Assembly (NCBI GenBank): GCA_050736615.1
Contig: JBOHWL010000192.1
Span: 1,865-65,864, forward strand
Source: Candidatus Binataceae bacterium
Lineage (GTDB): Bacteria; Desulfobacterota; Binatia; Binatales; Binataceae
DNA: 64,000 nt
Reading direction: 5' to 3'
Part shown: positions 10,833 to 63,946 of the stretch, piece by piece
Layout: the number at the start of each line of letters is the position of its first letter
How positions within the stretch are numbered: the first letter of the stretch is position 1
Made by a program: the position numbers and the translations under genes
Notes under the pieces: model-generated
Seen by the model: the letters and a program-made list of their open reading frames with translations, nothing else
Told to the model about the DNA's origin: nothing
The model's database searches: none

Positions 10833-11696
10833 CTAAAGCTTCTGCGCGCGTTCAATCACCGTCGCCGCTTCCTTCATCGCCTCAGCCGCATCGCCGTGCG
10901 CCGTCCGTGCGGCACCCACCACGATACGGGTTACTCCGGCCTCCTCATAGCGCTTCATGAGATCGAGCGCGGGCGTGGTTGGCAGCAGAACGGAAAACTC
11001 AAGCGCGGCCGGGTCTCGCCCGTACGCTTGCGCCATTTGCCGTATTTGCGGAATACAGGTGCGCGCCTGTTCCGCGCTGAGTCCGCCGGGGCACCAGCCG
11101 TCGGCATAGCGCGCCACACGCTTGAGCGCGTATTTCGGGTCATGTGCGCCGAGAATAATTTTCGGTCCTGGCTTCTGCAGCGGCTTGGGAAAAAGCCTGA
11201 CCGGCGGAAATTTGATGATTTCGCCGTGGTAGCTGGCTTCGTCCTCGCGCCAAAGCATGCGCAAAGCTTCGATCGATTCGCGCATCCGCTTCCATCGCCG
11301 GACGAAGTCGAGACCCATGATTTGCGCCTCTTCAGGGAACCATCCCGCGCCCGCACCCATTATGAAACGTCCATTCGAATACAAATCGAGCGAGGCGGTG
11401 GCTTTGGCCGTTTCAATCACGTTACGCTCAGTAAGCAGGCAGATGCCGGTGGCGAGCTTGATGCGCGAGGTGGCGTGGGCGGCAATTGACAGCGCGACGA
11501 ACGGATCAATCAGATGCGCGTAGAAGTCCGGCACCTTGCCGTCGGCGGAGCGTGGATAATAGGTGGTGTAGGCAGCCGGCATCACCAGATGCTCTGCCAC
11601 CCAGAATGATTCGAACCCCATCCGTTCCGCGGCACTGGCGATATCTCCGGGGTTGCCGGATTTTTCCGTCAAAAAAGCGAGCACGCCGGTCTTCAT
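10833..11696 (-). CDS. LLM-class (luciferase-like) F420-dependent oxidoreductase
   Basis: Motifs FWVAEHLVMP and MGAGAGW at ~287 aa. Convergent with the LLM gene at 9923..10759. Confidence 0.75.
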   Translation of the reverse strand: MKTGVLAFLTEKSGNPGDIASAAERMGFESFWVAEHLVMPAAYTTYYPRSADGKVPDFYAHLIDPFVALSIAAHATSRIKLATGICLLTERNVIETAKATASLDLYSNGRFIMGAGAGWFPEEAQIMGLDFVRRWKRMRESIEALRMLWREDEASYHGEIIKFPPVRLFPKPLQKPGPKIILGAHDPKYALKRVARYADGWCPGGLSAEQARTCIPQIRQMAQAYGRDPAALEFSVLLPTTPALDLMKRYEEAGVTRIVVGAARTAHGDAAEAMKEAATVIERAQKL

Positions 11697-11760
11697 CGAA
11701 ATGTCACCTCATCTGGTGTTGCTGTCCTAATCTTCAGAGCAATAGCGCGGCAATGTTCCT

Positions 11761-11928
11761 AGCAGGCTGTTGAAAAAATCACAGCCTGCTCCCCCGCTCT
11801 TTCTCTCCCGCAAAAGAGCGGGAGAGCAGCTTGAGGAAAGCAGCCATCTTTGCGCAGGGTGTTGCGGGCACTGGGATGCGGCTTGCGATAAGAACGTCTT
11901 TTTCAACACCCTGCTAGAGGAAATCTCC
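11761..11928 (+). repeat. ~165-bp palindromic MITE/REP-like element, copy A
   Basis: Nested hairpins agcaggctgt..acagcctgct, ctctcccgc-aaaaga-gcgggagag and gcagggtgttg..caacaccctgc. About 80% identical over the full length to 62006..62172. Confidence 0.8.
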
Positions 11929-12200
11929 GCACAAGCCCCAGTTGTCATTCTGAACGAAGTCCGCTTCCAGCGCAGCCCGCAGGAAGCAAGCACGCCAGTG
12001 TAGCGAAGCGAAACGAGCAGGCGAGTCCGCAGCGAGCTGCGTTTTGAGTCAGAGTCTGCGAGGTGTGCTCGAAATAGCGAGGAATGTCGGAAAAGTCGCT
12101 GAAAAGACCGAAAAAACCGGGATACCTCGCTTTCATACGCGCCTCGCGGACTCGTTATTCTAACGCTACTCGCGGACTCGTTCGCTCGGCTTCGCTTGAC
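11929..12200. repeat. composite palindromic repeat segment
   Basis: Contains gtcattctgaacg, the aggaatgtcggaaaag..ccgggatacctcgct unit and direct repeats of ctcgcggactcgtt. It is homologous to the elements at 61863..62003 and 62936..63008. Confidence 0.7.
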
Positions 12201-12228
12201 GTGCTCGCCCCGTCTCAGGCTCCGTTAG

Positions 12229-12753
12229 CTAATGAAAGCGCGCGATCGCATCCTCGATCATGCGCGCCGCCTCTTCCGGTCCAGCCCATTCGATGATTTT
12301 CACCCATTTCCCCGGTTCAAGTTCCTTGTAGTGACGAAAGAAGTGCGAAATCTGACTGCGCAAAATTTCCGGCAAGTCGGTATACGTGTGAACGCCGGAA
12401 TAATAGGGATTCAGCTGATCGAGCGGCACCGTAATTATCTTCTCATCCGGCCCGGCTTCGTCTTCCATCATCAGCACGCCCACCGGACGGCATCGCACCA
12501 CCGCGCCCGGAATTACCGGAATTTGCACCACCACCAGCGCATCGCACGGGTCGCCATCACGCGCCAGCGTATTGGGAATGAAGCCGTAGTTGGCTGGATA
12601 GAACATCGCGGTGTGCAGGAAACGATTGACAAACAAAGCGCCGGTTGGTTTGTCGAGTTCATATTTAACCGGTACGCCTCCTTGCGGAATCTCAATCAAC
12701 ACATTGACGTCCCAGGGCGGCGCTTTGCCTGCCGGAATTTTGCTAACATCCAT
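12229..12753 (-). CDS. ppa: inorganic pyrophosphatase
   Basis: Family I soluble PPase signatures (DGDPCDALV, EIPQGG..KYE) at 174 aa. Confidence 0.95.
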   Translation of the reverse strand: MDVSKIPAGKAPPWDVNVLIEIPQGGVPVKYELDKPTGALFVNRFLHTAMFYPANYGFIPNTLARDGDPCDALVVVQIPVIPGAVVRCRPVGVLMMEDEAGPDEKIITVPLDQLNPYYSGVHTYTDLPEILRSQISHFFRHYKELEPGKWVKIIEWAGPEEAARMIEDAIARFH

Positions 12754-12974
12754 GGAAGAACCTCTAGTTTGAATTTAGGCTTCCGCTCCGTCGGGCGCCA
12801 TGCCGTTGATGACGCACCGCTAACTAACGTCCCGGCAAACTTAACGCCGCAGTATCTTGCCCGCCACCGTGATGATTAAATCAGTAGCCGCACACGCCTC
12901 CGGGCGTGTGGCCAACATAGCGCCAGCCTGGCTCCGCCGCTGCGACTTGCCGACCCTGATCATCTGATACGCAA

Positions 12975-35693: not shown

Positions 35694-36761
35694 CTATCGG
35701 CGCGCGCCCCAATCCTCCGCCTCGGCCAGTTCGGGATCGGTGCCCGACGCGCTCGCACGGTTCGCGCTTCCCCACAACACCTGCGAAAGGTCGGCGCGAT
35801 GGAATTTGGCGCGGGCCAGCATGGCGCCATTGAAATCGGCACCCTCGAGCTTGGCATGGAAGAAGTCGCAGAACGAAAGATTCGCGCGCGCAAAGCCGGT
35901 GCGCTGACACAACGCGCGGCTGAACTGCGCCTGTCCCAGCTCGGCGCCATCCAGCCGCGCGGCTGTGAGATCCGCCTCGATAAACAGCGCCTGCGTCAGC
36001 GAAGTACGCTTGAGGCTCGCGCCCTCCATTTTCGCCTGCACGAAGATCGCATTGTCCGCGCGCGCCCCATCGAGTATCGCACCGGTCAGATTGGCGCCTT
36101 TGAAATTGCATTGCGACAGATTGGCGCCGCTCAGATCGCATCCCGACAAATCGGCCTCCATAAACTGGCAGAGCTCGAGATTCGCGCCGGACAATTTCTG
36201 TCCAGCCAGTGTGGAATTCATAAAAAACGAAAGCTCGCAAGCCATGCCAGCCATCACCGCGCTGGATAAGTTGGTTTTGATGAGCGTCGTCCGGTGCAGC
36301 CTCGCGTTCGCAAAATTGACACCAGTCAACACGCTGTTAAGAATCGAAGTTCGCTCAAGATGCGCACCGGTGAGATCCGCCGAACTCATATCGGTGTTGA
36401 TAAAGGCCGTCAGCTTGAGATCAGCTTCTCCGAGTTCCACCCCCTTGAGTCCGCAATCAAGGATTTTGGCATTCAGCAGCTTGCTCCGTTCCAAATTGGT
36501 CCGTTCCAGCTTGGAGCGCTCGATCACGGTACGGCTCAGCAGCGCGTCGCCCAGGTCGGCTTCGGAAAAATCCGCTTCGCTCAGAATCGATTCCTCGAAC
36601 GAAACGCGTTGTAGCTTGGCTCCGCGAAAATTCACCTTATTGAACACGCCGCCGGATAAGTCAGCGTCCGCCAGGTCGAGGCTGGAAAAATCCATATTGG
36701 TTATAAGCTCGCCGTTGCGCACGCCCGCAATCAGTTCCTCCCGTGTCATCGCGGCTTCCAA
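35694..36761 (-). CDS. pentapeptide-repeat protein
   Basis: Tandem A(D/N)LxG/A(N/D)F pentapeptide repeats run through the whole protein. Confidence 0.9.
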   Translation of the reverse strand: MEAAMTREELIAGVRNGELITNMDFSSLDLADADLSGGVFNKVNFRGAKLQRVSFEESILSEADFSEADLGDALLSRTVIERSKLERTNLERSKLLNAKILDCGLKGVELGEADLKLTAFINTDMSSADLTGAHLERTSILNSVLTGVNFANARLHRTTLIKTNLSSAVMAGMACELSFFMNSTLAGQKLSGANLELCQFMEADLSGCDLSGANLSQCNFKGANLTGAILDGARADNAIFVQAKMEGASLKRTSLTQALFIEADLTAARLDGAELGQAQFSRALCQRTGFARANLSFCDFFHAKLEGADFNGAMLARAKFHRADLSQVLWGSANRASASGTDPELAEAEDWGARR

Positions 36762-39484
36762 TCTTTAAGCAGGGTGCGCTTGAGATTGGAGCCGGCCAAA
36801 TCGGTGTGCTGGTCGAGTGTCGCGTGCAAAACGTCAGCCCGATACATATTTGCCGCGCGTATCGAGGCGCCGCTCAGAATCGCCTTGTGCATCACCGCCT
36901 CGAACAGATTGGCGCCGTCTAAATTGCTTCCGCTGAGATCGCTGCGCGTCGTCCGCAGCCGCGACAAGTCAGCGCGCTGAAAATCAGCGCGCTTGAGATT
37001 CGCGCCGGAAAAATCCGCGTTCGCGGCTTTCGCTTCGACGAGCTTCGCTTCCTCCAAATTGGCATCGCGAAGACTCGCGCCTTCGATCCCGGCACGCGAG
37101 AAGTCCGCGCCGGGCAACGTGCTATTGATGGTGAAGACCAACTTTTCAGTTCGCACATCGGCAAAGCTCGCATGCGCAAGCTTTGAGTCGAGAAAACTGA
37201 CGCGGCGCATCTTAGCCCCTTCGAAGCCGACCGCGTTGAGCTGGTCGCGCAGAAACAACACCCGTTCCATTTCCGCGCGTGCGAATTTGGCGCCGCTGAA
37301 ATCGCTGTCGATGAAATTAATGTGTTCGAGGTGAGCGGCGGAGAAGTCCGCGTTCGACGGCTTGGCGCCGAGAAAATCGACCTTGTCCATCCGGGCGCCG
37401 GTAAAATCGGCGGCCGCCAGCACCGCGCCGGCCAGCGTCGCCCCGGTGAAATCCGCATCGTTAACCGTGGCGCCGGTAAAATCCGCTCCTCCCGCACAAC
37501 TGTTGTTCAACTTCGCATTCCCGAGTTTCGCTTTCACTAACCGCGCGCGGGCCAGCACCGCGCCGCTGAAATCCGCTCCGCCCAAATCGCTGTTGCTGAG
37601 GTTGGCCGCCTCCATCAGAGCCTCGCGGAAATCCGCGCCGCGCAGGTCCATCCCCGACAAGTCGGCGCCAGTCAGATCAACGCCGGCAAAACTCTTCCCC
37701 TGCTTACGATCCTCCGCGACGCGGGCTTTGACCGCCGCGGCGCGCTCGGCCGGCAACGGCATCACAGGTGGAAAATGATGGGCGAATTTCCGATACGTTT
37801 CGCGTAATCGTTGTTCCGCCTGCGTCAGCTTCTCCCGCAAATCCGGCTCGGCGAGCTGGCTGTCGATCTTTTCACTGGAAAGGCCGCGCGCCTTCAAACT
37901 TTGGCTGAGGGCCGCGAGTTGTTCGAGTTGCCGCGCGGCGCTGAATTTCGGCGGACCTCCCGCTTGAACTTTCGCCTGGGCGGCTAGCTGATCGTAGTCA
38001 ACGCCCAACTGCGTGCAGCGCGCCCGCGCTGCCTCCTCCGCCTGACGGAAGCGCGCCAGCGCGTCAGCTTTCGTGGCTTCGGCATCCGCGCGGATTTTGT
38101 CCAGGTCGAGATTCTCAAGGCTCACCGGTTCGGATTCCGGTGGCAGCGTCTGCGCCAGCGCCTCATCGATCTTGGATGTGTCGGGAGGCGGCAGATTGAG
38201 TTGCTGTGCCTGCTTCAGCATCGCCTCACGCCGTTCAAGGAGTTGGGCCTTCGCGCTCTCCAACCGCTTCTCGGCTCCCGCCCGCTGATGCTTGCGCAGC
38301 AGGCCTTTGGAAGCGATCAGGGCTTGGAGTTCATTCTCGTCCTCGGGAATCACGCCTGGTGGCACCCCTTGCTCCGGCGGCATCAGGTCGCTTTCACGCA
38401 TAACCGCGCGCATCGCGCGCACTCGATTCGCCCGGTCGAGACGCGCCGACAAAACCTCCTGATAGTGGGACGCGGGTTTGGGTTGTCCGGCGGCTTCGGC
38501 GCCCGCGATGATTTGCAGGACATCCGCCGCGTCGTCGGTATTGATCGCCGCAATCCCGCGAAACAGTACGACCGCTCGTTCAAGGTGCGGAAACAGCCAC
38601 AGCGTCTCCGGCACGGTGCGAATCTCCTCGAACGATTCGCCACCATCGACCTTGCGATTGATGAAACAGCGCATGGCTATATCCGTCACACGCGAACTGA
38701 CTAATGGCTTGGAGGGATGCATTCCAGAAATTTCAAAGCTTTCACCGCCCTGAAAAAACCTCTGGAGTTGCTGATCGGCCGGCGCCGCATTGAAAATCGC
38801 CCAGTCCATATCGGCGGCAAAACCGGGAAACCGCTCCGCGAACCACCGCGCGTCATATGTGCCGGTCTTGGAAAACCGCTGCGGCCAGATGAAATCGTAC
38901 GGCTCGAAACTGGCCGCCGCCGCCGGACGGTCGCCAGGCGATCCGATCAGATGCGCCGGATCCTCGATGTTGGGCAGCGGATGTGCCGTTAGGCCGTTTT
39001 TATCGGTCACCGGCGCGACGCCTTTGCCAATCGGATTTTGCGCATATGCGGCGCCGCCGAACGCGTTGCGCCAAGATATGTCCATCCGGGTGAAAGGCGC
39101 CGGCTCTGAAGGCGCGCCGCGCCGCCAAAAGCGATCGCCGAAGACGTAGAGCCGCTTATCAATTGAGCCAAGTTGAAAACGCACCTGCAAGGCCGGCGTC
39201 GGCCGGCCGGCCGGGGAAAAACATGCGCCCTTGATCAAAACCTCGCCGCGCGTTTTCGGCATACCCAGATCGAGTACGCCGTCTTTACCCAGTTCCGCCG
39301 CGATCGTTTTCCACATCGCGGCTTCGGGCAGCAGCCACTGGGGGTTTTCGAAGGGCAAGAACGCCGCGACAGTGGCCGCCAGATAACAGCGCTCGCCGTC
39401 CTGGTAGCTCCTGTACAGCAGCCCAAGCCGTTGTGGCTTTACGATCTTCATCAAGTCTTGTCCGGTGCGACCGATGCGCTTCAA
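36746..39484 (-). CDS. DUF2169-domain protein with C-terminal pentapeptide-repeat region
   Basis: N-terminal ~330 aa resemble DUF2169 (vgrG-linked adaptor family). The middle is a coiled-coil/charged region and the C-terminal ~300 aa are pentapeptide repeats. Confidence 0.7.
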   Translation of the reverse strand: MKRIGRTGQDLMKIVKPQRLGLLYRSYQDGERCYLAATVAAFLPFENPQWLLPEAAMWKTIAAELGKDGVLDLGMPKTRGEVLIKGACFSPAGRPTPALQVRFQLGSIDKRLYVFGDRFWRRGAPSEPAPFTRMDISWRNAFGGAAYAQNPIGKGVAPVTDKNGLTAHPLPNIEDPAHLIGSPGDRPAAAASFEPYDFIWPQRFSKTGTYDARWFAERFPGFAADMDWAIFNAAPADQQLQRFFQGGESFEISGMHPSKPLVSSRVTDIAMRCFINRKVDGGESFEEIRTVPETLWLFPHLERAVVLFRGIAAINTDDAADVLQIIAGAEAAGQPKPASHYQEVLSARLDRANRVRAMRAVMRESDLMPPEQGVPPGVIPEDENELQALIASKGLLRKHQRAGAEKRLESAKAQLLERREAMLKQAQQLNLPPPDTSKIDEALAQTLPPESEPVSLENLDLDKIRADAEATKADALARFRQAEEAARARCTQLGVDYDQLAAQAKVQAGGPPKFSAARQLEQLAALSQSLKARGLSSEKIDSQLAEPDLREKLTQAEQRLRETYRKFAHHFPPVMPLPAERAAAVKARVAEDRKQGKSFAGVDLTGADLSGMDLRGADFREALMEAANLSNSDLGGADFSGAVLARARLVKAKLGNAKLNNSCAGGADFTGATVNDADFTGATLAGAVLAAADFTGARMDKVDFLGAKPSNADFSAAHLEHINFIDSDFSGAKFARAEMERVLFLRDQLNAVGFEGAKMRRVSFLDSKLAHASFADVRTEKLVFTINSTLPGADFSRAGIEGASLRDANLEEAKLVEAKAANADFSGANLKRADFQRADLSRLRTTRSDLSGSNLDGANLFEAVMHKAILSGASIRAANMYRADVLHATLDQHTDLAGSNLKRTLLKDWKPR

Positions 39485-57121: not shown

Positions 57122-57739
57122 CTAGAGCCCGCCGATGTCGTCGAGTCCGGAGATATACGAGATTACGCCCGCGAATTGCTCAGGAATGGCCGGGTCTTCC
57201 TTGTTCGCGTACAAATCGTACTCGGGGGCCACGATTTGGATTTTGAAGGCCCGCTCCGCTTGAGCGATCGTACCTTTGAACCTGATGTAGTCCGAATTGC
57301 TGCCATAGGCGTGGTCGAGGATGGTGAAGCCTTGCCCTTGCAACCATTGCTCAACCGCTTCGAATTGGCCGTGTGTCTCGCCGAATTTCGCGTGCATCGC
57401 CGCCGGGGTTAACCAATGCTGATATTCCGGTGATTTCGGGTCTGAAATTTCGTTCATGAGCTGATCGAACTGCCGCTTATTGCGCATCGCGAAGTGAAGT
57501 TCCATCTGGATCACGCGATGCGACGGCGCGGCGTGATCGTAACTCAAGTCCGCATTGGTCGGATGTTGCCCGCTAAGACGTGCGACCGGTGGCTGATTGC
57601 CCGCGCCAGCACCGATTGTGCCGGCGCAGCCAAAAGCGCTCATGGTCATCCCGACTATGCATGCCGCCAGCAGCGCGGCTCGCCAACCGCGCCATCCATT
57701 AACCGCATCGTTTTTGATCAAGTGCGCAAGTCTGACCAT
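57122..57739 (-). pseudogene. sedolisin (peptidase S53) pro-domain-only ORF
   Basis: Signal peptide/lipobox (FGCAG) followed by a pro-kumamolisin activation-domain-like region. Translation ends where the catalytic domain should begin, and the downstream space is occupied by the Crp gene. Confidence 0.5.
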
Positions 57740-57944
57740 TTCAACCCAACTCGTAGGCTCGCCTGCTTGGCTCCGCTTCACTCCCGCTGCACTGAGTGAT
57801 GTTGAACTAGCCCCGCGGCGCCGCGCACGCAAGCCACTTTTCCGCAGGCCGTCGCTGGCCCCACGTTTTTGATTGCATGCGTTGCAGGCGCGGCCCTGCG
57901 ATATCAGAGTGGGAAGACACGGCTGCGGATGCGGTCAGCGTCAG

Positions 57945-58625
57945 CTATTTCTTCCCCGCGGCAACCAGTTGCGGAAGGTCATGCTGAAGCATCAGGCCAA
58001 TCCGGTCGATACAGAGATCGGCAGGCGGATACTTGGCGACCTCTTGAGCGTCGAGCGCGTAATGGCCCTGGCGGGGGAACACGGTGGTCACACGATTGGC
58101 CCACGCCCGCTTGAACGCGCTCAGAATGCGGACCTTATCGTCGACCAGCACGTAATGGTTCGCCGGGTAACGCGCGGCGATATCGTCGAGCTCGGTTTCC
58201 TTGTGGATATAAATGAGGACGTTCTGTTCGGCGGCCTCGCCCAAGCCCGAGCGTTCCACCTTGAGCGGCTGAAACACCACATCGCCGTCGCTTAGGATGA
58301 CCGGGCGGCCAAATTTGCGCGCGCGTTCCAGCACGTCGAGCGATTCCGGAAACAGCCGGTTGGCAAACGGGTAGCCGATCAGGAAATGAGAAACCGCAAG
58401 GATATGGAAATCGCGCGGATTCTCAACCCGATAACGTTGCAACGCGCCGAGGTAATCCGCATAGCCGAGTTCGCCACGCAAGCTCTCGAAAATTTCCCAG
58501 TAACGCCGCTGGCGCTGCTGCCCGATCGCGTCCTCGAGATGACGCATCAAGTCCGCGACCACGCGATCGTTATCGAGCAACGTGTTATCGACATCGAAAA
58601 AAAACACCACCTCGTCTTGACCCAT
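57945..58625 (-). CDS. HAD-superfamily hydrolase
   Basis: FFFDVDNTL motif I and the downstream SDGD/DD motifs. Confidence 0.75.
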   Translation of the reverse strand: MGQDEVVFFFDVDNTLLDNDRVVADLMRHLEDAIGQQRQRRYWEIFESLRGELGYADYLGALQRYRVENPRDFHILAVSHFLIGYPFANRLFPESLDVLERARKFGRPVILSDGDVVFQPLKVERSGLGEAAEQNVLIYIHKETELDDIAARYPANHYVLVDDKVRILSAFKRAWANRVTTVFPRQGHYALDAQEVAKYPPADLCIDRIGLMLQHDLPQLVAAGKK

Positions 58626-58870: not shown

Positions 58871-60751
58871 TCACAATAGCTCGAAATTGTACTGAAACTG
58901 AGCGGTCAGCAGGCTTTCTCCCTTAAATAGACCGGTATTCGCCTCACGATCCCCGCCGAGTACCTCGATCGCCTGCAGCTTCAGAAAGTATTTGGTGGTC
59001 CACGGCGGCGTCAGCAGAAGCGACGGAAACAATGCGAAGGTGGTTCCCTTTGGATTGTAAATCATGGTCCAGGTCGGCGCGACCACTTGCCACCACCACG
59101 AGGTCCCGACGTTAAACAGCACGTTTACATCATTTTTGAGTTGGTGCTCGTTTAAATCGTTGCCCGTATAGGACGTTTTCGAGTTGTCCAGGAGAGTCTC
59201 CGTGAACACCTCGACGTTCGCCGTTAAATTGCCGGTGGACGTGAGCCAGGGCGCGTAGGCCTGGTCAAGATCGATGGCGGCCATCCATTTGACCACGTCG
59301 GACCAGCGCTGCCCCGTCATACTTGCGAAGGCATTATCTTCAAAGGATTGGTGGTTGGTGTAAAGTGCTTCGCCCCGGAACACCGCGGGAAAATGCATGG
59401 CCACCGATTCCGGCAAAGGCAGTTGCCGGTCCATCGTAAAGCCCGCCTCCTGAAAATCATAGAATGAATAATTCCACAGGCTGGTGAAGGGCGTCCATTT
59501 CAAGCTCCACGGCGCGCCGCCGCTGACGTTGTCGTTGTAGTAGAGAAAAGTAAACTCGGTTGAACCATAGAGACTGTGGAAGCGAACGCCTTCGTTCCAG
59601 TTCTGCGGTTGCATCCCGGGCACATGCCAATATCCGGTATCGACGATTGAGGTGTCGCCGATCGGCGAGTTTGGATTGTTGAATTTACGCAACGCCAGGT
59701 TGCAATGCGGCCGAAAGCTTTTCGGATAGGGATTGAACCCACGCTGCACCGTGGCTGGCAAGCAGATAAAGATTTCCCGGGACGCGGGCGGCGCGGTGAG
59801 ACCGGCGCCCATGGGACCGTACGGTCCGGGCCCCGACGGCGCGTCGGCGCCAAAGACCGCGCGATTGTCATAGTGAACGTCGAATCGTGCGCTCGGACCA
59901 TGGCTGGCGGCTGGGAAACACGGATCCACGCGCCCCGCCGTAAGATTCGCGCGATATTTGCGGTATGGGTCGCCGGTCTGCTCCGGCCAATAGACCGGCG
60001 CGAAGCCCGGCTCCAAGACGAGCTCAATAAAATTCGCGCTGAAGTTGCCTACTTCGGGAAGGCTGAGGATGGGATGAATCATCCATTGTGGATCACGCGA
60101 CTGCTCGAGGTTCGCGAAGCCGAATGCCCAGCACGAGTCAGTCGGGTTGATCACATCGCCCACGCGAAACGCAATTGACTGACCCCATACCACGATCTGA
60201 TTGCCGATATACGTATTGAGCGGACCCCATTTGTTCTCCCACCAGGCGTCACGCACCTGGTAGTTGTTATAGTAGTCGTTCATGCGGGAGCCGAAACTGA
60301 AGCCCTTCGTGTAGGATTTGTTATTGGCGCTGTTGAATGAGTAGGGCGGTTCATAAACAAACCACTCGCGCATGAAAAAAGTATTGTTGTCGTTCAGCCG
60401 GTAATTCTCGTCAACTTGAAGCAGCGTGCGCGAGACCGCCAGATTGTTGCGGCTGGGCGTAAAATCTCTCAGGGCGGTCGGATTCTGCCACATCCCAAAG
60501 GTCTGACTCAAATAGCCCGACACATGCAGTCCGCTCAACCATCCGCCCTCCGATCCAGTTGGGCTCGAAGCGGTCGGAATCTGCGGTAGGAGCGAACTTG
60601 TCGCTCCGGTGACGTGAAGAGTATCGGCGGGTTGTGAAAGGCCTCCGGCGTAAACCGTTGTCAAACCCGCCATCAGCAAAGCGGTAGTGGCGACGAGCAG
60701 CCCGGCGCACGCGCACCGGTATCGATTCGTTGCGCAGATCTTGAACCCCAT
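58871..60751 (-). CDS. secreted outer-membrane beta-barrel-like protein (DUF1302-like)
   Basis: N-terminal signal peptide. The 626-aa protein is rich in W/Y/N/G and has the C-terminal aromatic residues typical of OM proteins. Family assignment is tentative. Confidence 0.4.
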   Translation of the reverse strand: MGFKICATNRYRCACAGLLVATTALLMAGLTTVYAGGLSQPADTLHVTGATSSLLPQIPTASSPTGSEGGWLSGLHVSGYLSQTFGMWQNPTALRDFTPSRNNLAVSRTLLQVDENYRLNDNNTFFMREWFVYEPPYSFNSANNKSYTKGFSFGSRMNDYYNNYQVRDAWWENKWGPLNTYIGNQIVVWGQSIAFRVGDVINPTDSCWAFGFANLEQSRDPQWMIHPILSLPEVGNFSANFIELVLEPGFAPVYWPEQTGDPYRKYRANLTAGRVDPCFPAASHGPSARFDVHYDNRAVFGADAPSGPGPYGPMGAGLTAPPASREIFICLPATVQRGFNPYPKSFRPHCNLALRKFNNPNSPIGDTSIVDTGYWHVPGMQPQNWNEGVRFHSLYGSTEFTFLYYNDNVSGGAPWSLKWTPFTSLWNYSFYDFQEAGFTMDRQLPLPESVAMHFPAVFRGEALYTNHQSFEDNAFASMTGQRWSDVVKWMAAIDLDQAYAPWLTSTGNLTANVEVFTETLLDNSKTSYTGNDLNEHQLKNDVNVLFNVGTSWWWQVVAPTWTMIYNPKGTTFALFPSLLLTPPWTTKYFLKLQAIEVLGGDREANTGLFKGESLLTAQFQYNFELL

Positions 60752-61034: not shown

Positions 61035-61523
61035 TCAATCAATTTGCCATGATAAATTCTGGCGCGCACGTTCGCGGCTGGCCGGCGGCCAGACCTTGCC
61101 GATGTTATAGAAAGTTTCAAAAGCGGGCGTATCCTGTGGCAGTTCCAGCCATGGCAATTTGCTGCGCGTGAAAATATGCACGTCGGGCCGCACCACCGAC
61201 GGATCGTCGAGTGTTCCGGCGCGGACAAACAGCGCGTCGCCGGGAGCGCCGTGATAATGGCTCCAAAGATAGGTTCCGCATTCCCCGCAAAAGAACACGT
61301 CATGAGGCTTGCCGCCGCCTCCAGCCAGTCTGAACGATTTCGGCACGGCGCCTTTTGCCGCGACAAATTTCTTCTCAATCCAGAGATTAATTACGAAGGC
61401 GCCGCCGGTCATGCGCTGACAATCACGGCAGTGGCAGGCGTGGACAATCAACGGAGCGGCGTTCAATTTATAACGGATACGGCCGCATGCGCATCCGCCC
61501 TCGCGATCGTTCGAGTTACTCAT
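61035..61523 (-). CDS. GFA-family (glutathione-dependent formaldehyde-activating / CENP-V-like) protein
   Basis: CACGxIRY...C.C..C and FCGECGT zinc-binding cysteine pattern. The ORF maximum (to 61793) has an implausible Arg/Ser-rich leader, so the internal Met at 61523 was chosen. Confidence 0.7.
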   Translation of the reverse strand: MSNSNDREGGCACGRIRYKLNAAPLIVHACHCRDCQRMTGGAFVINLWIEKKFVAAKGAVPKSFRLAGGGGKPHDVFFCGECGTYLWSHYHGAPGDALFVRAGTLDDPSVVRPDVHIFTRSKLPWLELPQDTPAFETFYNIGKVWPPASRERARQNLSWQID

Positions 61524-61665
61524 CGTATCCCCCTGTGGAAAACTTTCAATCGGTCTCTTTTGGCGTCTGTCGGCGCGGGAAACTTGGGAAAAATTTGCTG
61601 TCGCCGCGGAAATTTGCTGACGATTCGCTGACGAGCGCACTCGCGCGCAAGGCGAATTACGGCGC

Positions 61666-61884
61666 GTGACGGGCGTGACGCCCCACCAATGGATTTTGCG
61701 AATGCGCCTGCGCGAGGCGGCGCGGAAACTCCGCTCGGGCCGCGAGCCGATCACTGAAATCGCTTTGGCTGTGGGCTTCGAGGATTTATCCAACTTCGTG
61801 CGCAGCTTTCATGAATTCGGGCTGGCGCCGAAACAATATCGCGCGACCGGTTCGTCCATTAGGGAACCTCTGCACAAGGAGTAA
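61666..61884 (+). pseudogene. C-terminal fragment of an AraC-family transcriptional regulator
   Basis: Only the second AraC HTH is present (ITEIALAVGFEDLSNFVRSFHEFGLAPKQYR), with no sensor domain or first helix. Its 3' end runs into the palindromic repeat. Confidence 0.6.
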
Positions 61885-62003
61885 GTCTGTCATTCTGAGC
61901 GCAGCGAAGAATCCCGGATCTCTTGATTTTGCCAGCGCTTTATCTGGATTCCTCACTTCGCAGACTCCGTTCAGAATGACAAGTGGGCTTGTGCAGAGGT
62001 TCC
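61863..62003. repeat. ~140-bp near-perfect palindromic element
   Basis: Left arm ggaacctctgcacaag..gtcattctgagcgcagcgaagaatcc and right arm ggattcctcacttcgcagactccgttcagaatgac..cttgtgcagaggttcc are reverse complements. Related units occur at ~11929..12200 and 62936..63008. Confidence 0.8.
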
Positions 62004-62005
62004 TT

Positions 62006-62172
62006 AGCAGGCCGTTGATAAATCACAGCCCGCACCCCCTCTCTTTCTCCCCCGCAAAAAGAGCGGGGGAGAAGCTTGAGGAAAAAAGCCGTTTTCACGC
62101 AGGGTGTTGAATACGCCCAGGCACCCAGTCGTAATGATCATGCCTTTTTCAACACCCTGTTAGATCATCCCT
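62006..62172 (+). repeat. ~165-bp palindromic MITE/REP-like element, copy B
   Basis: About 80% identical to 11761..11928. Carries the same nested hairpins ctctttctcccccgc-aaaaa-gagcggggga and gcagggtgttg..caacaccctg. Confidence 0.8.
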
Positions 62173-62244
62173 TTCGGCGCTTGTCGGCAAATCGGCCCCG
62201 CTAAGGCATTCTTGCCATAACCTTAACGTGTGAACGGTGGCATC

Positions 62245-62883
62245 ATGGCGGATGAAATCGGACTGTTAGAGGCGATTCATACGATGCGGGCGATGCGGCG
62301 GCTCAAGCCCGACCCTGTCCCCGATGAACTGATTCGCAAGATCATCGAAGCCGGGACCTGCGCACCCAGCGGCGACGTGCAGCACTGGCGCTTTATCGTC
62401 GTCAAGAATGCCGAGACCAAGCGGCAGATCCAGATGCGTTATCGGCGAGCGCTCGATCAATTGATGCCGCGATATAAAAAAGCCTCGCCGCCGCCCGGCA
62501 AGACCGTTGCGCAAAAGGAGCGGATGCTAGCGGCGGTCGAATACCTCACCAATCATCTGCACGAAGCCCCCGTGCTGATCGTAGGCTGCCTGGTGGGCGA
62601 TTTTTCGCGAACGGTCGGACTCGAAAAAATGTCCGGCGCGTCAATCTACCCGGCCGTGCAGAATATGCTCCTGGCGGCGCGTGCGCTGGGCCTGGGCGCC
62701 ACGCTCACCACCCGCCATCTGCTGTACGAAAAAGAAGTCAACGAAGTTTTGGGATTGCCGGCGAACGCCGAAAGCTTCGCGATTATTCCGATCGGTTATC
62801 CGATGGGCCGCTTTGGTCCGGTTTCACGCGAGCCGCTGGAGAAAGTGGCCTTCGCCGAACGTTGGGGACAACCTTGGCGCTAG
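62245..62883 (+). CDS. nitroreductase-family protein
   Basis: Nitroreductase fold motifs (RAMRRL, P..E....I.EAG..APSG...Q.W.F.VV) at ~212 aa from the internal Met. Confidence 0.8.
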   Translation: MADEIGLLEAIHTMRAMRRLKPDPVPDELIRKIIEAGTCAPSGDVQHWRFIVVKNAETKRQIQMRYRRALDQLMPRYKKASPPPGKTVAQKERMLAAVEYLTNHLHEAPVLIVGCLVGDFSRTVGLEKMSGASIYPAVQNMLLAARALGLGATLTTRHLLYEKEVNEVLGLPANAESFAIIPIGYPMGRFGPVSREPLEKVAFAERWGQPWR

Positions 62884-62935
62884 GCTAAGCACTGCATAGG
62901 CCCCTTTTTATCATTGCCGAACTGAGTGCGCCTAG

Positions 62936-63008
62936 AGGGAAAGGAATCCGGAAAAATCCTTGAAACGACGAAAAGATCCGGGATTCCTCGCTGCGCTCGG
63001 AATGACAG
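62936..63008. repeat. inverted partial copy of the palindromic element
   Basis: Its reverse complement (ctgtcattccgagcgcagcgaggaatcccggatc...) matches the left arm of 61863..62003 with 2 mismatches over ~38 bp. It is also homologous to 12085..12150. Confidence 0.75.
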
Positions 63009-63145
63009 CATCGATGTCTGTGCGGAAATTCCGCAGCTTTGTTTTTTCCGATTTTCATAAGCAAAAACGCCGGGCCGTCCGAGTTGCGGAGGCCCGGCGT
63101 TTGAAGCGCTGCGAAACGACAATTCGCAGCCGATCCGCTTGCCGA

Positions 63146-63946
63146 CTATTCGACGCAACCCGAGGGCGCCGCGCTGGTCGCGAAGTTGTTGCCATACCAT
63201 GCGTTCATTTGGCAATTGGCATCGGCTTTGTCTTTCACGCCATCGGAAGCCATCGCATTGTCCGCGATCCGATTATTGGTGCTGCCGCGACCAACCACAA
63301 TCCCGTACTTCTGCAGCGTGCGGCTCGAATTGAAGCCAAGATTGCCGCTCAGGAAGTTGTCATTACTGTGCGAGGCGCCGGCGCCGCAAGCACCGAAGGG
63401 CCGCTTCGCCGCACAGCCAAGATAAACTCCCGCCTCACTGTTCGCGCTCGCGTAGACTGACTGAATATCGTTCCCGGTGGTGCCGTCCAGCCATACGCCG
63501 TAGGTGCCATTATCAATCGCTTCGGAACTTGCCACCGTGTTGGCGCCGCCGCCCTCTATACGGAGACCGTCGCGCCCGTTGTTGTCGAAGGTACTTTGGC
63601 TGATTTCAACGCCACTGGCCCGGTCGAGCAATATCCCGCTTCGCCGGTTACCGCTCGCCTCGATCGAATCGATGGTGGTGTCGCGCGCGGCGGTCTTCAC
63701 GCCGACGGCGAAGCCGCTTACCGTGGCGTTACCGCTATTGCCATTGCCTTCGACGCCGACGTCGCTTGCGCCTCGAAATATGTTGACGCCGATTCCATTG
63801 CCGCCACCTTCGAGCGAATGGCCGTCGAGTTTCAACACGACATGGGCAGCACGGATATCGATACAATCGCCTGACCGCGTGGTCAGAGACTTTCCCACAG
63901 TATATTGGCCGGAGAATTCAATCGTCGCGCCGCACGCATCGATCAT
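63146..63946 (-). CDS. right-handed parallel beta-helix repeat protein (pectin-lyase-fold, NosD-like)
   Basis: Repeated GxxGxxxxN/D beta-helix rungs and a C-terminal Cys-rich tail. The N-terminus may extend beyond the chosen Met. Confidence 0.55.
   Translation of the reverse strand: MIDACGATIEFSGQYTVGKSLTTRSGDCIDIRAAHVVLKLDGHSLEGGGNGIGVNIFRGASDVGVEGNGNSGNATVSGFAVGVKTAARDTTIDSIEASGNRRSGILLDRASGVEISQSTFDNNGRDGLRIEGGGANTVASSEAIDNGTYGVWLDGTTGNDIQSVYASANSEAGVYLGCAAKRPFGACGAGASHSNDNFLSGNLGFNSSRTLQKYGIVVGRGSTNNRIADNAMASDGVKDKADANCQMNAWYGNNFATSAAPSGCVE

Follow-up and report, generated by a model that had tools for sequence, protein, structure and literature searches.

MITE-bracketed composite units, in which copies of a miniature inverted-repeat transposable element (MITE) mobilise a gene or an integron, are known from Acinetobacter and Enterobacter, where they have one outer target-site duplication and occur in differing contexts. 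The insertion sequence (IS) IS5 duplicates a target that reads 5'-YTAR-3' (PMC5009759). Repetitive extragenic palindromic (REP) sequences with the loop AGCGNAGCG are listed, together with their RAYT transposases, for Enterobacter, Klebsiella and Citrobacter (Table 1 in PMC2817692), each REP type going with its own RAYT (PMC2817692, PMC3116915). On a smaller scale, the DNA mini-hairpin GCGNAGC is reported to be unusually stable, with a melting temperature of 70-76 °C (PMC13037366). These systems are compared here with a locus of a Candidatus Binataceae bacterium, a nitroreductase-family gene lying between palindromic repeats in a 64-kb stretch of contig JBOHWL010000192.1 (this whole stretch is called the window, and all coordinates are those of the window, not of the feature). 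An earlier note on this DNA had likened the gene and its repeats to a mobilised or delivered single-gene cassette of ~1.1 kb. The reading favoured here, with a probability of about 85%, is that the nitroreductase gene is a resident Binataceae chromosomal gene, beside which three non-autonomous DNA transposons inserted separately in short non-coding stretches.

The repeats themselves are beyond doubt, since all three that had been reported are found in the sequence, at or very near where they had been placed and far beyond chance. They are indeed MITE-type elements with terminal inverted repeats (TIRs), and two copies of one family, named A, flank the gene with opposite orientations. The upstream palindrome, A1, given before as 140 bp, measures 141 bp and is bounded by perfect 16-bp TIRs, GGAACCTCTGCACAAG at 61863-61878 and its exact reverse complement at 61988-62003 (the pair reads GGAACCTCTGCACAAG ... 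CTTGTGCAGAGGTTCC). It has a very stable predicted RNA fold (-68.7 kcal/mol, z = -6.0, none of 200 shuffles as good), and its interior consists of two inverted REP-like hairpin units, a canonical 25-mer at 61889-61913 (+) and a larger-loop variant at 61947-61980 (-). The next element, B1, had been outlined as 165 bp (62006..62172); it is real, with its limits refined to 62008-62159 and a fold z of -6.8. The downstream copy, A', had been taken for a partial one, whereas alignment by hand and by profile recovers both arms and both terminal repeats of a full-length older copy, one repeat with a 4-nt deletion and the other reading GGAATTTCCGCACAG. Its canonical 25-mer lies at 62982-63006 (-), with a compensated stem ATTCC/GGAAT, and the whole copy no longer gives a fold that stands out from its shuffles (z = -0.15). 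Just two sites of the window match the 27-mer TGTCATTCTGAGCGCAGCGAAGAATCC, 61888-61914 (+) and, with 2 mismatches, 62981-63007 (-), where chance would give none; the earlier count of 2 mismatches in 38 bp between the two arms should read 3 in 38, or 2 in 35.

The flanking nucleotides read TTAG[A1]TTAG[B1]TTAG. Each of these two elements thus has its own TTAG/TTAG pair, whereas a moved unit would carry one outer duplication, which argues that A1 and B1 inserted individually. The state of the two A copies points the same way. With an nhmmer profile built from metagenome copies only, A1 is matched over its full length (E = 1.5e-25, 84 bits), and A' at 62887-63033 (-) over model positions 4-109 of ~115 (E = 1.2e-9, 33 bits). 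Since their decay, measured against the same profile, is so unequal, A1 and A' did not arrive together. The profile finds three A copies in the window, the third being the end of a more distant element, A2 (11918-11960, E = 9e-7), and has no match in 300 kb of 26 Binatia loci. In A2, an imperfect palindrome whose DNA fold has a z of -4.9, a single terminal repeat can be recognised, AGGAAATCTCCGCACAAG; this repeat and the first arm are all that it shares with family A. Of note, the ATG of an open reading frame (ORF) without Pfam match, 12232-12879, lies inside the last arm of A2. The coordinates of all these features are collected in Table 1.

Table 1. Features of the nitroreductase locus and related elements in the window
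Feature	Position	Strand	Remark
GFA-family gene	61035-61523	-	
AraC-type regulator remnant, 72-codon ORF	61666-61884	+	C-terminal helix-turn-helix only; Pfam HTH_18 E = 6e-17
TTAG, left target-site duplication of A1	61859-61862		read from sequence; fits the YTAR rule of the family
MITE A1, 141 bp	61863-62003	+	perfect 16-bp TIRs GGAACCTCTGCACAAG
TTAG, right duplication of A1 and left duplication of B1	62004-62007		
MITE B1, 152 bp	62008-62159	+	TIRs CAGGCCGTTGATAAA / TTTTTCAACACCCTG; three internal hairpins
TTAG, right duplication of B1	62160-62163		
Spacer, 81 bp	between right duplication of B1 and nitroreductase ATG		
Nitroreductase-family gene, 212 aa	62245-62883	+	ATG at 62245; Pfam PF00881 E = 2.8e-24
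CTAA, presumed left duplication of A'	62885-62888		2 nt past nitroreductase stop
MITE A', full-length decayed copy	62889-63032	-	orientation opposite to A1
GCAG, right flank of A'	63033-63036		no match to CTAA
G+C-rich hairpin	63065-63102		between the convergent nitroreductase and β-helix genes
NosD/right-handed β-helix gene	63146-63946	-	convergent with nitroreductase gene; Pfam NosD E = 1.1e-14
Second B copy, CTAG[B2 11763-11913]CTAG	11759-11917	+	
A2, ~320 nt, decayed relative of A	11918-12235	-	adjoins B2
Pro-kumamolisin and HAD genes	57122-58625		

The nitroreductase gene, which is intact, has full-length orthologs that are 72-86% identical in Binatia and were located in 26 Binatia genomes. 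In seven of them the order is pro-kumamolisin (-), HAD (-), VOC (+), nitroreductase (+), in some cases FAD oxidoreductase (+), then amidohydrolase (-) and β-helix (-), except that the L002 genome is devoid of the VOC gene and that the L001 contig ends ahead of the β-helix gene. No A or B copy lies within 6 kb in these seven syntenic genomes, and neither element flanks the nitroreductase gene at any of 28 ortholog loci (the seven, the two contigs L338 and L339, and 19 others). The neighbourhood from pro-kumamolisin and HAD to β-helix is kept in nine related Binatia contigs, with no repeats flanking the nitroreductase gene; the finding that the earlier note had named as fatal to a cassette, the gene standing repeat-free in the same place in relatives with an intact AraC gene elsewhere, is thus largely observed, for its part on the nitroreductase gene. 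The GFA and nitroreductase proteins of the window also have NCBI counterparts of 100% identity, both encoded on a single contig of a Candidatus Binataceae metagenome-assembled genome, and the gene therefore belongs to an ordinary chromosome context.

Three further contigs allow a closer comparison. Gene order is also conserved in L337, where the HAD protein is 92% identical and the HAD gene adjoins GFA, as it would in the window minus a 626-aa ORF, and where GFA has a decayed A copy just upstream. L338 and L339 are apparently two assemblies of one sequence; their identity to the window is 85% for HAD, 86% for the nitroreductase and 62% for the β-helix protein, and their order is CRP (+), pro-kumamolisin (-), HAD (-), GFA (-), ADH (-), F420H2-quinone reductase (-), nitroreductase (+), β-helix (-). 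The last two genes are directly adjacent there. Alignment of this junction shows that L338/L339 lack a block of ~165 nt of the window (~62870-63033) that coincides with A' within ~15 nt, so that the junction would correspond to an empty site for A', as near as divergence allows. The nearest A remnant in L338 is found ~750 bp upstream of the nitroreductase gene, past another gene. The hairpin downstream of A' and outside it, at 63065-63102, is kept in L338/L339 with both sides of its stem changed (GCCGGGCC/GGCCCGGC versus GCCGGACG/CGTCCGGC), and is probably the terminator of the nitroreductase and β-helix genes. As a separate observation, the L338 nitroreductase gene (7481-8236) has been called as 251 aa because its frame runs through the terminator hairpin and overlaps the convergent β-helix 3' end; in the window and the other orthologs the stop comes ~40 codons before that of L338/L339.

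The stretch between HAD and nitroreductase is variable: it holds VOC in the seven genomes, GFA, ADH and the F420H2 reductase in L338, GFA and DUF1329 in L337, and the 626-aa ORF, GFA and the AraC remnant in the window. Downstream of the nitroreductase gene, relatives have the amidohydrolase with or without FAD oxidoreductase; upstream, homology to the relatives begins only at about the ATG. These differences in gene content reflect separate rearrangements in a variable region, and A1 and B1, which settled in the spacer, are not their breakpoints, because both keep perfect duplications.

The AraC remnant had been described as abutted and truncated by the palindrome. A1 indeed adjoins its 3' end, and the last 8 codons and the stop codon of the ORF are read from A1; the truncation lies at the 5' end and is unrelated. 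Residues 2-60 match HTH_18 profile positions 20-79 of 80, so that the match is complete C-terminally, and the first 18-19 positions and everything N-terminal to them are missing at the end opposite A1. A frameshift was considered and rejected, as the HTH_18 match is not lengthened when the upstream frame is joined on. This incomplete and unextended match, together with the GFA start codon ~140 bp upstream on the other strand, indicates that the N-terminal two-thirds of AraC were lost in an earlier event. When A1 and B1 are removed, the sequence becomes ...TCCA TTAG ATCATCC... (reconstructed pre-insertion sequence GGTTCGTCCATTAGATCATCCCTTTCGG), in which the ORF would extend 25 codons further. 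A1 rewrites the tail of the remnant and did not cause its truncation. No intact AraC gene was found elsewhere, no further search having been made.

The assignment of family A was obtained from other DNA. Metagenomes were scanned with a pattern combining the outer repeat with the arm core (GGAAYYTCYGCACAR, 3-14 nt, TGTCATTCYGA), which matched at least 120 stretches of soil and peat contigs; one assembly, JADEYI01, supplies 48 of the 80 stretches listed. The contigs involved are only distantly related to the window, with 33-50% identity between shared proteins and a GC of 64% versus 59%. Among the matches listed, at least 86 copies from soil and peat contigs are bounded by conserved 16-bp TIRs, with a length of 109-210 bp, mostly 109 bp; 48 of these 86 have identical 4-bp flanks, which are of the YTAR type in 47 (CTAG 27, CTAA 15, TTAG 5). 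CTAG is its own reverse complement and hence uninformative about direct versus inverted flanks, but the non-palindromic flanks, CTAA and TTAG, form direct repeats in 20 of 20 listed cases and inverted ones in none. Because all 20 are direct, the 4 bp are a YTAR target-site duplication and not part of the TIR.

IS5-like ends, GGAAGGTGCGAATAAG / CTTGTTCGCACCTTCC, are found in an E. coli record (L332) annotated with an IS5-like ISKpn26-family transposase, with 100% identity in E. coli genomes, and the A TIR GGAACCTCTGCACAAG is identical to such an end at 11 of 16 positions. Element A thus combines 16-bp IS5-like TIRs and a YTAR duplication of 4 bp in a short body (~110-210 bp) that has no coding capacity and is multicopy and dispersed in other genomes, which makes it a MITE with IS5-group hallmarks. 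Decayed A copies stand at other positions in L337 and L338, so that the family has been active in this lineage. One of them, at 6651-6732 of L338, separates the ADH gene from the F420H2-reductase gene and consists of just the left half (CTAG, GGAATCACTGCACAGG and the core); the Logan contig L339 starts inside this same copy (L339 1-53), the assembly having probably broken at the repeat. The 16-mers of the B and A terminal repeats also have 63 and 8 matches in viral contigs, nearly all within coding sequence and with no surrounding element; these are chance matches, and serve as a control for the result on the 25-mer given below.

YTAR duplications also mark a second MITE family, B, ~150 bp long with terminal repeats CAGGSTGTTGAAAAA. 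It comprises six copies in all, and its flanks are TTAG/TTAG for B1, CTAG/CTAG for B2 and CTAG/CTAG for a copy in an unrelated contig of the viral collection (L335). In four of the six copies, B adjoins an A terminal repeat across only the 4-bp YTAR (window 62004-62007 and 11914-11917, L287 ~995-1002, L324 ~919-925), which suggests that one MITE inserted into the duplication left by the other, or that MITE ends are preferred as targets. A stricter rule, that B always abuts A, held for the first four copies and was rejected when solitary B copies were met in the viral contigs L335 and L336. Both families appear to be undescribed, of a well-known kind.

The following mechanism can be proposed. 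An IS5-group DDE transposase encoded elsewhere would bind the TIRs, excise the element and paste it into a YTAR site, and repair of the 4-nt staggered cut would create the target duplication. The insertions themselves are legible in the sequence: A1 entered a TTAG eight codons before the end of the AraC pseudogene remnant, and B1 one of the two TTAG copies made by A1, or in the reverse order; A' inserted earlier, into CTAA 2 nt past the nitroreductase stop, and has decayed since.

Several observations weigh against separate insertions of plain IS5-type MITEs. A' is without a matching duplication (CTAA versus GCAG). The L338/L339 junction, taken above as lacking A', is blurred by 19% divergence, with edges of about ±15 nt, and no exact empty site was found for A1 or B1, the flanking AraC remnant being absent from every relative examined. 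The cognate transposase that the earlier note had proposed to look for did not turn up: neither an autonomous element with A TIRs nor an IS5-like transposase was found in the 64-kb window, in the metagenome loci (918 kb) or in the Binatia loci, whether by tblastx with the IS5-like element of E. coli or by looking for widely spaced TIRs, no pair of which lies 400-4000 bp apart. We infer the link to an IS5-group enzyme from the duplication and the 11/16 TIR identity only. Finally, the interior of A is conserved far beyond family A, which a plain IS5-derived MITE leaves unexplained.

This interior is built on a 25-mer, GTCATTCYGAGCGNAGCGARGAATC, present in both arms of A and found exactly in 113 IMG/VR stretches (L027-L139) with unrelated flanks. 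In a plasmid collection, only two core matches were obtained, of 26-28 nt at 100% identity, both in Calothrix sp. PCC 7716 (L140 1501-1528 and 1623-1648). The 25-mer is thus spread over Binataceae, soil and peat bacteria, Calothrix plasmids and IMG/VR contigs. Its structure, GTC + ATTCT / GA GCGNAGC GA / AGAAT, would fold as the head GTC, a 5-bp stem ATTCT/AGAAT, tandem G·A/A·G pairs and GC/GC closing a GNA triloop. At the two degenerate positions allowed, the 127 non-redundant matches comprise 107 T-A and 20 C-G stems and no mixed one, a covariation that is by itself no proof of selection on the stem, as the T-A and C-G forms could be two lineages; of the two forms, T-A is found in A1 and C-G in A'. 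Further evidence for a selected stem comes from secondary copies with other paired stems (ATCCT/AGGAT, ACCCT/AGGGT, ATCCC/GGGAT, ATTTT/AAAAT). The N of GCGNAGC is A in 50 cases, C in 43, T in 17 and G in 17. A nearest-neighbour fold gives the 25-mer no special stability (-1.9 kcal/mol, z ~0). In viral contigs, 75 singlets and 47 inverted doublets were counted, no doublet having complementary outer flanks; A1 and A' are doublets of the same hairpin unit. By a crude ORF measure, the core is oriented with the locally dominant coding strand in 50 cases and against it in 20, with 57 ambiguous.

Such features raise the question of whether the palindromes would rather be REPIN-type elements, REP doublets moved by a RAYT and not by a DDE enzyme, with incidental outer repeats. 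Among the alternatives this one survives best, and still looks unlikely. The 25-mer is indeed built like a REP, from a short 5' head, a stem and the loop AGCGNAGCG found in enterobacterial REPs (PMC2817692), and its inverted doublets allow alternative hairpin and "clover" folds of the kind described for REPINs (PMC3116915); moreover, 122 instances in viral contigs, away from contig ends, have no outer repeats. However, the YTAR duplications outside the 16-bp repeats, seen in 47 of the 86 copies among the matches listed, are a DDE-type signature and are not described for REPINs in PMC2817692 and PMC3116915, and the head of the 25-mer is GTC, not GTAG. No RAYT-like ORF is present in the window, and ~1 Mb of core-bearing contigs yielded only two decayed RAYT-like fragments (L057 and L048, 1-4 kb from any core, with Pfam Y1_Tnp below cut-off). 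The 25-mer is therefore called REP-like in architecture and is not classed as a REP.

A match of 13-mers of the core against literature text returned only unrelated primers and no description of the 25-mer. Perhaps it is an independent module, mobile or under selection, and thus a REP-like unit or "small dispersed repeat" not yet described, built around the GCGNAGC mini-hairpin; A could then be a chimera usable both by a DDE enzyme through its outer ends and by an HUH/RAYT-like enzyme through its inner hairpins; this is offered as a tentative idea, on the improbable side. An association with GIY-YIG nucleases was dropped as anecdotal, since the core-bearing contigs, 1.04 Mb in all, contain one GIY-YIG motif and the window none; that one case is a small GIY-YIG nuclease ORF (YHVYMMASASRVLYIGVT...) on the minus strand of L126 (~11140-11203), whose start is 63 nt downstream from a 25-mer core.

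The unmatched flanks of A' also fit another scenario, somewhat less probable still, in which A' is a recombination scar, a hybrid of two A copies left by an event that deleted the FAD oxidoreductase and amidohydrolase genes between nitroreductase and β-helix. Compared with the seven genomes, 1.2-2.6 kb of conserved genes are absent at precisely the place of A', and a hybrid copy would have the unmatched CTAA and GCAG; but decay alone explains an unmatched flank, and L338/L339 have the same adjacent arrangement without A between the two genes, from which it follows that the loss of the intervening genes (or their never having been gained) predates A' or is independent of it, and that a scar need not be invoked.

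The cassette reading has fared worse and is very improbable. It would make A1 and A' the ends of a composite MITE-bracketed transposon of ~1.2 kb that brought the nitroreductase gene here. A single gene does lie between two oppositely oriented copies of the same family, which are 885 bp apart, and the genes on both sides differ from those of relatives. A1, however, has its own TTAG/TTAG, and the check for an outer target-site duplication gave TTAG on one side and GCAG on the other. A' is far more decayed than A1; the neighbourhood is kept in the nine contigs, and with the 28 ortholog loci free of adjacent A or B, differing contexts are not what is seen; and the same nitroreductase-β-helix junction exists without A' in L338/L339. 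As for an integron gene cassette with the palindromes as attC sites, a single promoter-less-looking gene beside imperfect palindromes of attC-like length may evoke it, but it is dismissed, as the ends GGAACC.../...GGTTCC lack RYYYAAC / GTTRRRY core sites (they read GGAACCTC... and ...GAGGTTCC followed by TTAG), palindromes stand on both sides of the gene, members of the family are scattered as single copies with YTAR duplications, and relatives have the gene in synteny.

For a resident nitroreductase gene with separate MITE insertions beside it, the consequences are modest. The finding as first posed matters little, beyond the removal of a false lead, that of a "MITE-delivered resistance-type cassette"; the pattern is the ordinary one of MITEs accumulating in the intergenic gaps of a rearrangement-prone Binataceae region. 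For annotation, such MITEs create spurious ORFs, rewrite the 3' end of a pseudogene ORF and break assemblies, as in L339. They can now be masked in Binatia and soil metagenomes, using the A TIR GGAACCTCTGCACAAG plus YTAR and the B TIR CAGGSTGTTGAAAAA plus YTAR. For specialists of mobile DNA or nucleic-acid structure, only the 25-nt hairpin shared across phyla could be of interest.

Other features of the window can be listed briefly. The 626-aa ORF (58871-60751, -) lies between HAD and GFA, has a signal-peptide-like N-terminus and no Pfam match, and is absent from that place in L337 and L338, the closest relatives, whose HAD and GFA genes are direct neighbours. At 35800-37600 (-), several families of 30-50-nt direct repeats with a GGCGCC...GAAATC periodicity lie inside long minus-strand ORFs (35694-36761 and 36746-39484), which look like a repeat-protein gene, possibly of pentapeptide type. 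A promoter and terminator scan gave nothing exceeding shuffle expectation; the decayed A' terminal repeat TGCGGAAATTCCGCA followed by GCTTTGTTTT (63017-63046) fits a simple intrinsic-terminator pattern on the nitroreductase strand, in a scan that found 3 overall against 2.4 expected. No Rfam family reaches its gathering threshold in the whole window, and only noise is returned at E <= 10 over 61500-63200.

When set beside the described systems, the locus shares with the Acinetobacter and Enterobacter MITE-bracketed units two inverted copies of one MITE around a gene, and differs from them in the separate flanks of each copy and in the synteny of the gene. With IS5-group IS and their derived MITEs, family A shares the 4-bp YTAR duplication, 16-bp TIRs that begin with GGAA and end with AAG, a preference for non-coding DNA and, as any MITE, a small ORF-free body. 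In contrast with the IS5 group, no parent element or transposase was found for A in the loci searched, and, in contrast with IS5-derived MITEs, its interior is not obviously made of fused IS ends, being a doublet of a hairpin that also stands alone in other phyla. The IS5 subterminal sequence resembles the reverse-complemented A core faintly (ATTCTTC...CTCAG), which was not counted as evidence. The centre of the 25-mer is exactly the GCGNAGC mini-hairpin motif, here extended by the tandem G·A/A·G and a 5-bp stem, and dispersed as a repeat. What the 25-mer, and it only, has in common with REPs and REPINs is an imperfect palindrome in the range of 20-40 nt with a conserved 5' head and the loop AGCGNAGCG, and the occurrence of inverted doublets forming a long hairpin as well as of singlets. 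The differences lie in its head, (T)GTC in place of GTAG, in the conservation of one 25-nt sequence across phyla, and in the doublet of family A, which is boxed in by DDE-type TIRs and target duplications.

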